Below the pieces are notes generated by a model. It was not told the origin of the DNA. It ran no database searches and saw only the letters and a list, made by a program, of their open reading frames with translations. Position numbers and translations under genes: made by a program. From Escherichia coli (GTDB lineage: Bacteria > Pseudomonadota > Gammaproteobacteria > Enterobacterales > Enterobacteriaceae): a stretch of DNA of 64,000 nucleotides. Of the stretch, positions 50,402 through 55,517 are shown one piece after another (position 1 is the first letter of the stretch; the number at the start of each line of letters is the position of its first letter). The stretch lies in the NCBI RefSeq assembly GCF_044324875.1, contig NZ_CP172185.1; one strand, 5' to 3'.

Positions 50402-50448
50402 TTACAATAATGTCCACGCCTGCGGGCGTGGACTACTGTTTGAAGCCA

Positions 50449-50691
50449 ATGGCTATCTATATCGAAATAACAAAACATTATGAAACTCATGAAAAGGTCG
50501 CATATTTATATAGCTGCGACCATATTTCATGGGGAGAATTTCTGATCACCAAAGAAGGTTTTGCGCTGGAATCCGTGAAAGAACTTAAGGGTGAAAAGCA
50601 GAAATTTTATATGTTCAGAGCCTGGGGCAAAGTCAGGAGAGCATACTTAACCACGGGAGAATTTCCCCAGGAAACATGTTACGCCGCTTAA
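50449..50691 (+). CDS. Hypothetical 80-aa protein (start uncertain; track ORF starts at 50410 inside the pepD terminator hairpin)
   Basis: ORF only; no motif recognised; convergent with the DUF457 gene. Confidence 0.3.
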   Translation: MAIYIEITKHYETHEKVAYLYSCDHISWGEFLITKEGFALESVKELKGEKQKFYMFRAWGKVRRAYLTTGEFPQETCYAA

Positions 50692-50707: not shown

Positions 50708-51217
50708 TCATGCATTTACCATTTTGGCATTACGCCTGCACCACATGGCAATGGCGGCAACCACTAATGCCAGTTCCAGTAAAAACGACCAGTGTAATAA
50801 AAAATTGAGCCACCACGGATGATGTACCGCCGTAATATGAAAGAATGCAAACGGTTGGTTAACGAAAGGCATCAGCCACCAGATATCACCGACCAGCGTA
50901 TCGAGTAATAAATGCGCGATACTATTCAGGCAAAACACCACGCCCAGCCACGCCGGAAGTTTATTCTTCGCAATTCCTGCCCAGACTAATGTCGCCGCCA
51001 GCAGAGCAAACCATAATAATGGCCAATGAGACGGGTAAAGATGATGATGTCGTTGCCCGTTATCAACCAGATAGCACCAAAAAAGATCAAAATCGGGCGC
51101 AACGGCCCCAAGTAAGCCAATAACCATCGCCCAGCGCGCATGACGAGCAATCAGTGGCAAGCGTTTCATTAAAGTACAAGTTATTAAATAACCAGCCGGA
51201 AGATGACCGATAAACAT
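50708..51217 (-). CDS. DUF457 (YdjM/YbcI-like) membrane-bound metal-dependent hydrolase family protein
   Basis: Starts MFIGHLPAGYLI; His-rich hydrophobic ORF; 61 bp downstream of prfH on the same strand. Confidence 0.55.
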   Translation of the reverse strand: MFIGHLPAGYLITCTLMKRLPLIARHARWAMVIGLLGAVAPDFDLFWCYLVDNGQRHHHLYPSHWPLLWFALLAATLVWAGIAKNKLPAWLGVVFCLNSIAHLLLDTLVGDIWWLMPFVNQPFAFFHITAVHHPWWLNFLLHWSFLLELALVVAAIAMWCRRNAKMVNA

Positions 51218-51278
51218 GACTATTCCTTTCGTTTTTCCCGCCGCTTTCATATAGAAAACGGCGGGAGACATTCCTCAA

Positions 51279-51893
51279 TTACACAGCGACAAAAGCCATC
51301 CCTGTAAACGTTCGTCGCGGGTTGCCACGTTCAATCTGGTGATGGAACATTCGCCGCTGCGATTTCAGCGCCGCGCTATTTTCCTGTTGCTGTTGCTCCA
51401 GCTTCCAGGCAATCAGCAATCGCGCCAGCCGTTTGTTGGCATGTTGGCTGCGCTCTGACTGAACCTTCACGCTAATCCCGGATGCCAGATGCGTGGCGCG
51501 TACCGCCGAGTCGGTTTTATTGACATGTTGACCGCCCGGCCCCGACGAACGCAGCGTCTCATAACGGATTGCATCCGATTGTTCCTGCTCATCAGCAGTA
51601 AAACGCCCAATGCCCAGAAACCAGTTTTTGCGCCCATGATGAGGCCGATACGGACTCGGACAAATCCACTGGATAGTGCCGCACCAACTTTCGCTTAATG
51701 CCCATGCGTTATCGCCATCCAGAGAAATCAGCGCTGAACGCAACGTGTCAGAGTAGCGACCCGTTTCTGTTTCCAGCACCGTTATCGCGACGTCTTGTCG
51801 GGTAGCTTCTTTAATCAACCTGTCCAGCGCCTTTTTCACTGCGAGGCAACATTCTTCCGGCCCCTGCGCTGAGGAGAGTTGTAGCAAGATCAT
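51279..51893 (-). CDS. prfH: Peptide chain release factor homolog PrfH, full length (204 aa)
   Basis: GGQ motif ([16 protein letters not shown]); ATG overlaps rtcB2 stop (ATGA). Confidence 0.85.
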
Positions 51894-53041
51894 CCTTTTT
51901 TCCCTCCACTGTTTTTGAGCGTTAGCACCGGACGCAGCCGCGCGACAGGAATAATTAAACCGGCTTGCACCAGACATTGCACCACGCTTTCAGCCGATTT
52001 ATAGGCTTGTGGCGCTTCTTCAAAGATGAGTTGTTTATCGCGACAAATTACCCGACTGCCAAGTTCAGTACGCGAGAGTTGCGTCGCCGTGCATTTCGCT
52101 GCCAGACGCCCTTTACACTCGGTGCGCCCCCATTTACGCCCTGCCCCATGCGCCAGCGAGTGGAGCGTTTTTTCGTTCGCAACAGGCTGTACAAGCCAGG
52201 AGTAATCACCGCGTGAACCGGGAATAATCACCAGACCGTTGTCATCCGGCGTGGCACCTTTACGATGCAACCAACCCTGTTGATCGCCGATTTGGCACGC
52301 GCTAACAAAGTTATGCGCCACATCCAGAACCGGACTTCCGGTGGCCTTAACTTGTTGCATTATGCGCAAAGCAATCATCTGGCGATTAATACGCGCAAAC
52401 GCTAGCACATCGTCATGTTCCGCAATATACCGTAGCGCGTCGTCACTGCCTTCAGGCAAACCATGATGCGAAAACGAGGCAATATGCCGCTGTAAAATAG
52501 ACTGCCCCAACCCCCTCGAGCCGCTATGAACCAGCAGTTGCAGATGCTGCGCATCCAGACCTGCCAGTGCAAACAGTTCAGCGTCGATGATTTCATCAAC
52601 TTGTTGCAGTTCTGCGAAGTGGTTTCCGCCACCGATAGAGCCAAGCGAGCTGCGCCACGGATGCTGTGCAAATGCTGACGGCAGGTTTTCCTCCAGCCAG
52701 CTTTCTTCAGCAACGTCATCCAAAGCTGATAATCGCTTTTCAAACTTATCGGCGTTGTATTTGCGAGCGAGAATATCTGTTTGCCATAGCGCCATGCCGC
52801 AGCCGATATCATTGCCGACCAGTGCCGGGTAAAAACGGCCTGCGGAGAAGAACGCTGCGCCAATCGGGTAGCCGCGTCCGGGATGTAAATCTGGCATCCC
52901 TACTACGCGCTGCATGTTGGGTAAATTTGCCGTGGTGTGTAATTGTTGGATCGCTAAACTCTCGATCCACAGGTCATCAGATGCGATGGTAAATACCGCA
53001 TCGGATAAGGGACGAATATATTTGCCCATAAACCATTCCAT
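51890..53041 (-). CDS. rtcB2: RtcB-family RNA ligase paralog RtcB2, full length (start may be 53029)
   Basis: RtcB motifs ([38 protein letters not shown]). Confidence 0.8.
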
Positions 53042-53219
53042 TTATGAATAAAAATCAGGAAATGGCAGACGAATCCAGGGCAAGAAAAAAAGAATTAATC
53101 CTGGAAAGGTCTGCAAAGAGTCATTGATAAAGGATTTGTCATGATTTACCTCCTTGCAGTTTGTGGAATAAGAAAACGCGCACATACTAGGCGGGCGTTA
53201 TTTTCATTGCAAGCTGGAT

Positions 53220-53672
53220 TTAATGTTGCGGTTTATATCGCATATAAAAATTAGTAAACCACGCTCCCCGGCATTCAACGCACTGCTGCTTAACTGTCTG
53301 AAAACCATAACGTTCAAAAAAGGGCTTTGCGGTTATGCTGGCGTCCACCGTAAGTTCGGATTCAGACTTAATCAAAGGTTTTAACAAAGCGCTGGCAACC
53401 CCACGGCGGGTGTATTCAGGGTCAACAAATAACATATCGATATAATGTTCAATGCGGGAAATAAAACCAACCGGTTGTGCATTAATGACTGCAACCCGCA
53501 CTTGTGATTTCGCGAGTTTATCTTTCCAGCGAGATTCGTCAATCTGCGCCCAGGCGGCAATTTGCTGTGGAGAATAGTGCTGACTGGCAGTCATCGTAAC
53601 CGCTCGAAGGAAAATAGCGCATAGTTGCTGAAAATCGCCAGGCTGATAGTTTCTTATATGTATGTTATTCAT
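53220..53672 (-). CDS. yafP: GNAT-family N-acetyltransferase
   Basis: 150-aa ORF; last gene of dinB operon. Confidence 0.85.
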   Translation of the reverse strand: MNNIHIRNYQPGDFQQLCAIFLRAVTMTASQHYSPQQIAAWAQIDESRWKDKLAKSQVRVAVINAQPVGFISRIEHYIDMLFVDPEYTRRGVASALLKPLIKSESELTVDASITAKPFFERYGFQTVKQQCVECRGAWFTNFYMRYKPQH

Positions 53673-55497: not shown

Positions 55498-55517
55498 CAC
55501 TGGTAAAGTATACAGTG
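55498..55517. promoter_or_regulatory. LexA box upstream of dinB
   Basis: cactggtaaagtatacagtg = CTGT-N8-ACAG palindrome 15 bp before the dinB start. Confidence 0.75.

Follow-up and report, generated by a model that had tools for sequence, protein, structure and literature searches.

The closest described relative of the element discussed here is PA5471.1, a 13-codon leader of Pseudomonas aeruginosa that makes armZ (PA5471, RtcB-like) and PA5470 (prfH) inducible by ribosome stalling (Morita et al. 2009, as described in PMC12057347, PMC13041342 and PMC3516279). The published model, based on mRNA levels, is transcription attenuation; ArmZ rises strongly when leader codon 3 is made amber or the leader region is deleted, stalling connected with Gln3 and Phe4 induces, and the leader mRNA is associated with ribosomes (PMC12057347, PMC13041342, PMC3516279). 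For years PA5471.1 has been studied in the Pseudomonas resistance field as a regulator of MexXY efflux. A leader recognizable by sequence as its homologue is described here upstream of the rtcB2-prfH operon in a 64,000-nt stretch of the Escherichia coli chromosome (contig NZ_CP172185.1), called the window below. To our knowledge, no system other than RtcB2-PrfH is known to rescue ribosomes cut in the decoding centre and to ligate them again. Studies of this rescue and repair used plasmid expression or knockouts (PMC9304027, PMC9223846, PMC13166195), and no leader, promoter or native regulation is mentioned in these papers or in other searchable E. coli RtcB2-PrfH literature. The K-12 gene ykfJ is reported, second-hand in a review, to be inducible by 4-azaleucine, a hint of such inducibility in E. 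coli.

The leader of the window is a 15-codon open reading frame (ORF) on the same strand as the RtcB-family gene and prfH that follow it, and its Shine-Dalgarno (SD) sequence, AAGGAGGT at 53148..53155, lies 5 nt ahead of the ATG; the initial annotation had pointed to this ORF and its near-perfect ribosome-binding site, and both were found as described (Table 1). The connection with Pseudomonas came from a note by the Prokaryotic Genome Annotation Pipeline (PGAP) on the K-12 rtcB pseudogene, which mentions mexXY induction and led to PA5471/ArmZ. At the P. aeruginosa locus GCAAAGGAGGT-N6-ATGATTCAGTTCTCTACCCTTTGCAGG.. encodes the 13-residue peptide MIQFSTLCRLRLA, whose Gln3 and Phe4 match the published description, and the E. 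coli leader has the same SD and the same CTTTGCAG core. R1, a covariance model built from 30 taxa with P. aeruginosa left out, matches the locus of that species (L084, 1593-1873) over its full length (41.3 bits, E 4.5e-9). Judged by sequence, the 15-codon ORF is a homologue, or orthologue, of the PA5471.1 leader: common to the two are the GCAAAGGAGGT SD, the CUUUGCAGG core, a length of 13-15 codons, the downstream GYCUGCC and GGAUUGG elements, the predicted alternative RNA structures, and the same operon of an RtcB-like gene plus prfH. By this homology the E. coli leader is expected to sense ribosome stalling as well. The two also differ, in that the leader stop lies 65 nt from rtcB2 in E. coli and ~210 nt from the RtcB-like gene in P. 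aeruginosa, that the E. coli version has no predicted terminator, and that it fronts a bona fide ribosome-repair pair whereas the P. aeruginosa leader fronts a MexZ anti-repressor. With no intrinsic terminator predicted in E. coli, an identical mechanism becomes less credible; the claim of homology is untouched by this.

The leader was followed through 80 species-level prfH loci together with P. aeruginosa and P. putida-group loci. In practically all of the proteobacterial loci, rtcB2 is preceded by an ORF of 13-16 codons, optimally spaced behind GCAAAGGAGGT and with CTTTGCRG inside it; the ORF reaches up to 17 codons in cases in which the leader has an insertion behind it. The pattern AAGGAG-N4-10-ATG-N15-33-TTTGCRG has a single match in the window as against none in 100 shuffles, and exactly one match, upstream of rtcB2, in each of 59 related loci. 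R1 gives one full-length match per locus, directly upstream of rtcB2, at 73 proteobacterial loci (Enterobacterales, Pseudomonas and further lineages), among them the beta-proteobacterium Parachitinimonas and a Chromatiales metagenome-assembled genome (MAG); it has no further match in the window and none in Bacteroidota, Hydrogenophaga or loci with the YdjM-family gene only. All 73 loci keep a near-consensus SD, the ATG and an in-frame stop, while the sequence between them varies and the alignment gaps inside the ORF are of 3 or 6 nt. Among 5426 complete E. coli genomes the leader region is present in 5391 at ≥95% identity. In K-12 the rtcB2-prfH operon is a pseudogene and the leader is still present. 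The ORF carries no annotation in RefSeq E. coli, the curated MG1655 record included, Rfam scans of the window region and five related loci returned no family for it, and literature searches with ykfJ, with PrfH leader/uORF and with both peptide strings retrieved no description of the E. coli leader.

Some observations on the leader stand apart from this comparison. In K-12 and many other E. coli a ~127-nt repeat (..GTGACTGGGGTGAACGAACGCAGTCGCAGTACATGCAACTTGAAGTATGACGAGTATA), which looks like an ERIC/IRU element, separates the U-rich tract from the ribosome-binding site of rtcB2. Its insertion point, beyond which the match to the leader query ends in most E. coli genomes, corresponds to ~53048 of the window, in the loop of helix H3 (see below), and the insertion is seen in L003/L086 (~2150-2290), L004, L007, L021 and L070. 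In the Chromatiales MAG (L056, 3749-4001) the leader, the attenuator and the first rtcB2 codons are kept, the rest of rtcB2 is deleted, and an intact prfH follows ~100 nt after the truncated gene. The loci of Mucilaginibacter, Pedobacter and other Bacteroidota (L073-L083) have no leader of the PA5471.1 type. In those of the Mucilaginibacter type (L074, L077, L078, L082, L083) a reading frame seems to run upstream of rtcB and to stop 5 nt short of the rtcB ATG, with a conserved hairpin CCAGGTAT..ATACCTGG in the last codons of the frame, an arrangement that may represent a different regulatory or coupling set-up. The Hydrogenophaga loci L068 and L069 carry, ~180 nt upstream of rtcB, a divergent 19-codon ORF, MQNNMTSLWAGSAVAGLSV, with an AGGAG SD; as R1 does not detect it, this ORF may be only remotely related or may be a leader of independent origin.

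Within and behind the leader the alignment contains several helices whose arms are listed in Table 1. H1, a 6-bp helix of GCAGAC with GTCTGC, was predicted by RNAalifold unaided and is 98.3% paired, with compensatory changes at four of its six pairs; H2 (CCAGG with CCTGG) is 74.7% paired, with double changes at five pairs. The same H1/H2 picture is found in a second, mostly different set of genomes, in an alignment that was itself fitted to the structure. Two further helices join the region behind the leader to the start of rtcB2. H3 (CCATTTCC with GGAATGG) is 79.5% paired; at its pair 128-170, 15 sequences have A-U and nine have U-A. H4 (TTGCCC with GGGCAA) is 77.2% paired, and its TTGCCC overlaps the 3' arm of H2; in Hafnia and Serratia GGGCAAT becomes GAGCAAT together with the change of ATTGCCC to ATTGCT(C), and Proteus has GGACA with TGTCC. 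H0, finally, joins CTCTTTGC of the leader (53113..53120) to GCAAGGAG at the leader's own SD; it is 92.7% paired, and its pair 2-46 changes from C-G to A-U in Xenorhabdus. There, the substitution at base 46 (G to U, Cys to Phe) is matched by changes in both the H0 and the H1 partner, and covariation of one base with two different partners is the pattern that alternative pairing predicts.

These helices bear on the question of what is being conserved in the leader. No conservation is seen in the N-terminal half of the peptide, and most taxa have (T/S)LCR; TLCR corresponds to CUUUGCAGR, in which the synonymous positions are invariant, and its variants LFR, LLR and LCG coincide with compensating changes in the RNA partner, as does the Arg to Gly change of Proteus. 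Since the variants track the RNA partner and the N-terminal half is unconserved, the constraint would lie mainly on the RNA and on the length and position of the ORF, and the peptide itself is probably irrelevant, TLCR being explained by H0/H1 pairing. A 15-residue peptide acting in trans, with the ribosome, RtcB2 or PrfH as conceivable targets, could draw on the recurrence of (T/S)LCR, but this motif gives way exactly where the RNA partner changes, and outside the motif the peptide is unconserved, its length ranging between 13 and 16 residues; we regard such an action as extremely unlikely. The opposite view would take the whole region for a structured RNA element (a riboswitch, a protein-binding site or a small-RNA target) with the ORF as an untranslated by-product, and the explanation of the conserved part of the peptide by base pairing, together with the lack of protein conservation in its N-terminal half, speaks for it. 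It is nonetheless improbable, as all 73 loci have an optimally spaced SD together with an ATG and an in-frame stop, the indels are multiples of 3, a stop at codon 3 alters regulation in P. aeruginosa, where the mRNA is ribosome-associated, and no Rfam family matches. The suggestion of the initial annotation that the short ORF is a translation-sensing leader finds good support in comparison, through the homology with PA5471.1 and the helices with compensatory changes. It is also worth mentioning that in taxa that keep the Arg codon of the H1 arm (53110..53112) it is AGA or AGG at all loci, never CGN; these codons are rare and slowly decoded in E. coli, and while pairing explains the choice, ribosome dwell time may also be affected.

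When each species was folded singly, the 5' part had a hairpin between the leader and segment 2 as its minimum-energy structure in every one of the 30 taxa (mean -20.9 kcal/mol); for the 3' part, most taxa gave a predicted hairpin that encloses the rtcB2 SD and AUG (mean -16.3 kcal/mol). The E. coli pair, each hairpin being folded by itself, has -18.4 (leader:segment 2) and -17.8 kcal/mol (start-masking), and the bases GCCCTGGATTCGTCTGCC are common to both, so that in these predictions they are mutually exclusive and of similar stability. Segments 1 and 2 are ~30 nt apart, and 113 nt separate the leader ATG from that of rtcB2. We consider it probable, with appreciable room for doubt, that the leader with its 113 nt to the rtcB2 ATG is a ribosome-dependent attenuator of rtcB2-prfH acting by masking of the start site. 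The strong SD of the leader would load ribosomes efficiently. A ribosome that reaches the leader stop would cover or melt segment 1, leaving segment 2 to fold onto the rtcB2 start (H3/H4), and the operon would be off; the loss of rtcB2 translation may in addition expose the transcript to Rho. If ribosomes stall early, within the first ~five codons, meet an early stop or do not arrive at all, as might be the case with drug-bound or rRNA-damaged ribosomes, segment 1 would remain free and capture segment 2 during transcription (H1/H2), the rtcB2 start would be open, and the remaining healthy ribosomes would then make RtcB2 and PrfH. The effects of the codon-3 amber, the leader deletion and the Q3/F4 stalling in P. 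aeruginosa all indicate that expression is on when ribosomes do not traverse the distal leader. A ribosome with its P site in about the first five codons would stop short of segment 1. For Pseudomonas, whose segment 1 begins at codon 8, the limit moves to codons 3-4, which fits the Q3/F4 result.

Control at translation initiation, possibly reinforced by Rho, is favoured because no intrinsic terminator is predicted in E. coli. The alternative is transcription attenuation as in P. aeruginosa, in which full translation of the leader would lead to a terminator before rtcB2 and stalling would favour an antiterminator. This is the published model for PA5471.1 and armZ, drawn from mRNA levels, and a conserved U-rich tract does follow 8-10 nt after the 3' arm of H1. 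We hold it to be unlikely here: the scan of 53029..53142 gave no terminator-like combination of hairpin and U tract, the U-rich run lies inside the H3 loop with no stable hairpin adjoining it, the other conserved pairing open to segment 2 is with the rtcB2 SD and AUG, and changes at the mRNA level could come from Rho polarity or from decay of untranslated message. A terminator formed by the leader CAGGA and the UCCUG before the U run was considered and rejected, as it would have 5 bp and a loop of ~45 nt and is not nested with H1.

Several points weigh against start-site masking by the two hairpins. The accessibility of the rtcB2 start shifts modestly between the two states, from 0.18 to 0.38 in E. 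coli by constrained partition-function folding; computed over 14 taxa it goes up in nine, stays the same in three and goes down in two, and it is not relied on here. H3 is predicted to persist in the 'on' state, and the covariation of H4 is weak. For H1/H2, none of 500 shuffles reached the observed pairing, a control that overstates significance because the sequences are related, which does not apply to the control with partners slid by 1-3 columns, where pairing was no higher than 47%. A uniform slowing of elongation would not obviously lower the occupancy of segment 1, so that early stalling as the inducer is an assumption. The published P. aeruginosa model invokes transcription termination and not start-site masking (PMC12057347, PMC13041342, PMC3516279). 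The leader ORF does not appear in the one E. coli small-ORF ribosome-profiling supplement searched, and its translation and regulatory role in E. coli are predictions from comparison.

Attenuators of the trp/his type use the position of a ribosome on the leader to select between alternative RNA structures, and the proposed E. coli switch would likewise be set by the position of the translating ribosome. Unlike them, the E. coli leader has neither a run of regulatory codons nor an intrinsic terminator, and the signal would be a general failure of translation instead of the shortage of one amino acid. With the translational attenuation of erm and cat genes it has in common a leader ORF and alternative hairpins, the SD and start of the regulated gene being masked in one of them. 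It differs in having three segments, not four, in showing no evident drug-specific arrest peptide, and in a seemingly inverted logic, in which masking would be favoured by a ribosome that sits on the leader's pairing segment and induction would need a stall upstream of that segment. The ORF toiL upstream of topAI-yjhQ in E. coli (PMC12121999) is another short ORF that signals ribosome-targeting stress through the state of its own translation and so controls a gene behind it; the downstream genes are different ones, and no sequence relationship was seen, none having been tested.

The structural genes were already known, and the E. coli leader is an unannotated member of the PA5471.1 family. As far as the literature can be searched, three things appear to be new: the spread of the leader family over gamma- and some beta-proteobacteria, the RNA-switch core predicted to be able to mask the rtcB2 start, and the reading of the conserved peptide motif as a by-product of the RNA. 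If the motif is indeed an RNA constraint, the interpretation of the PA5471.1 mutants changes. The shared leader and switch join two bodies of literature, that on RtcB2-PrfH repair and that on PA5471.1 and MexXY, and lead to the prediction that rtcB2-prfH of E. coli is induced by ribosome stalling; what switches the operon on is a question unaddressed in published E. coli work. The leader is present, unannotated, in nearly every E. coli genome, K-12 included. Rather more tentatively, and as a possibility we ourselves would not bet on, the leader and its two-hairpin switch may constitute a general test of ribosome competence in gamma- and beta-proteobacteria, in which the very strong SD would capture ribosomes, and those cleaved in the manner of colicin E3 or bound by drugs and parked on the first codons would directly induce, because the 3' half of the leader could then hold the anti-start segment; control would be at the level of translation initiation and not of intrinsic termination, with no role for the peptide. 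Repair enzymes would then be made only when damaged ribosomes exist.

Table 1. Features of the rtcB2-prfH region of the window, in the order of transcription
Feature	Position	Strand	Description
Candidate -35	53207..53212	minus	TTGCAA; close behind the yafP stop, with a 17-nt spacing to the -10
Candidate -10	53184..53189	minus	TAGTAT; followed by the GC-rich discriminator GTGCGCG
Leader SD region / H0 5' arm	53148..53157	minus	GCAAGGAGGT; nearly invariant in all loci
Leader ORF	53095..53142	minus	15 codons; ATGACAAATCCTTTATCAATGACTCTTTGCAGACCTTTCCAGGATTAA, encoding MTNPLSMTLCRPFQD and a stop
Segment 1	53100..53114	minus	leader codons 10-15; H1 5' arm GCAGAC (53109..53114), H2 5' arm TCCAGG (53100..53105)
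Segment 2 (switch segment)	53058..53083	minus	predicted pairing partners: the leader (H1/H2) or, alternatively, the rtcB2 start region (H3/H4); H4 5' arm TTGCCC (53078..53083), H2 3' arm CCTGGA (53074..53079), H1 3' arm GTCTGC (53065..53070), H3 anti-SD CCATTTCC (53058..53065)
U-rich tract	53046..53056	minus	GATTTTTATTC; H3 loop; T-rich run conserved across taxa
Segment 3 (rtcB2 initiation region)	53022..53039	minus	weak SD / H3 3' arm GGAATGG (53033..53039), ATG (53027..53029), H4 3' arm GGGCAA (53022..53027; start-codon G and codons 2-3)
rtcB2	51890..53029	minus	RNA ligase of the release-factor-H-coupled RtcB family, 379 aa; PGAP agrees
prfH	51279..51893	minus	peptide chain release factor H, 204 aa; ATGA overlap with rtcB2
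GC-rich hairpin	51237..51265	minus	CCCGCCG-N15-CGGCGGG in the prfH-YdjM spacer; no U tract, not scored as a terminator
YdjM/DUF457-family membrane protein gene	50708..51217	minus	Pfam PF04307, E 1.2e-8, residues 3-156

The two structural genes of the window are the RtcB2-PrfH rescue and repair module in its intact form. The product of rtcB2 belongs to the RtcB family coupled to release factor (RF) H, as it matches NCBIfam NF007153 with 637.8 bits (cut-off 407) and TIGR03073 with 616.1 bits and has the catalytic histidine H294; that of prfH matches TIGR03072 with 328.8 bits (cut-off 166.65), carries GGQ at residues 120-122 and lacks RF domain 1. The rtcB2 stop and the prfH start share an ATGA (..GGATGATC..), so that the pair is translationally coupled as well as intact, both as first annotated; an intact coupled pair of this kind is known biology. 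The start of rtcB2 had been placed at 53041 and is most likely the second ATG, at 53029 (MGKY.., 379 residues), for PGAP annotates that ATG, the NCBIfam equivalog NF007153 aligns residues 1-378 of 379 from MGKY, tblastn alignments to ~70 other genomes begin at that residue, and the published catalytic H294 is a histidine only in that numbering. The upstream ATG at 53041 was rejected, being absent or out of frame in Pseudomonas and Serratia. It is the start at 53029 that gives the 65-nt distance from the leader stop. Apart from this start, the sequence features first listed for the region (leader ORF, SD, ATGA overlap, prfH and the YdjM-family gene) all stood.

Between yafP and rtcB2 the scan for consensus promoters and terminators found none, the candidate -35 of the leader falling below the threshold. 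However, Enterobacterales, Pseudomonas and Parachitinimonas have TTGCAA, TTGCTA or TTGCGC at an unchanged distance from the leader, and TAnnAT with a G+C-rich stretch is conserved in ~28 genera-level loci; from phylogenetic conservation alone we infer a dedicated leader promoter (53212..53184). The conserved G+C-rich stretch stands right after the -10 (53177..53189; ~28 loci), with examples such as TAGTATGTGCGCG, TAATATACGCGCAC and TATCATTCGCCACC. A G+C-rich discriminator is a feature of stringently controlled promoters, and such control may apply here. A search for LexA boxes (CTGT-N8-ACAG, one mismatch allowed) returned none near 51217-51300 or 53140-53220, so neither SOS control by read-across from dinB-yafNOP nor a control like that of ydjM is indicated for the leader or the YdjM-family gene. 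The pattern does occur, with one mismatch, as CTGGTAAAGTATACAG at 55500..55515, directly upstream of the dinB start, and the only other match near the locus is a chance one inside rtcB2 at 52561.

On the minus strand of the window the gene order is dinB, yafN, yafO, yafP, rtcB2, prfH and the YdjM-family gene, beyond which lie a 93-codon hypothetical ORF and then pepD on the plus strand. This form of the locus is found in ~6% of the 5426 complete E. coli genomes. Roughly 40-45% (an estimate from an even-step listing) have intact rtcB2-prfH without the 0.83-kb segment of YdjM-family gene and 93-codon ORF, and the remaining genomes have either the K-12-type deletion, which fuses remnants of rtcB2 (ykfJ) and prfH, or other rearrangements.

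The gene behind prfH is of the DUF457 type, starts 61 nt after the prfH stop and is on the same strand, as the initial annotation had it; its product has no NCBIfam or PADLOC match. The further idea that it encodes a functional, co-transcribed partner of RtcB2-PrfH we find very improbable. In its favour are the strand, the 61-nt spacer with no predicted terminator, and the order prfH-YdjM-pepD common to Escherichia species and Superficieibacter electus. But the gene accompanies rtcB2-prfH in only 329 of the 5426 E. coli genomes (~6%) and at five of the 80 species loci, so that it is absent from ~94% of the genomes and from 75 of the 80 loci, while roughly half of all the E. coli genomes have intact rtcB2-prfH, and the proposed co-conservation fails. 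In Klebsiella aerogenes (L088, 1772-5547) the order is dinB-yafP-YdjM-pepD, with neither rtcB2-prfH nor the leader, and more distant YdjM homologues stand in unrelated neighbourhoods. From this distribution the YdjM gene is taken to be a lineage-restricted resident of the chromosomal site, a separate and dispensable neighbour and not a component of the module. Read-through from prfH into it is possible in this strain, as the GC-rich hairpin of the spacer lacks a U tract and no terminator is predicted. The ydjM gene of E. coli is under SOS (LexA) control.

The spacer between prfH and the YdjM gene of S. electus contains a different hairpin, and K. aerogenes L088 keeps only the remnant TCTTGCAAT after yafP. 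The 93-codon ORF (50410..50691, plus strand) accompanies the YdjM gene in E. coli, not in S. electus, and its 93-residue product has no Pfam, NCBIfam or PADLOC match; since its ATG overlaps the terminator-like hairpin of pepD at 50412-50433, the start, or the gene itself, is doubtful. Of the individual strains, MS 198-1 (NZ_CP146687.1) is 100% identical to the window in this region, with the match split in two by an IS1 family transposase insertion at the locus, and strain 118UI is 100% identical and uninterrupted across the two sub-regions queried.

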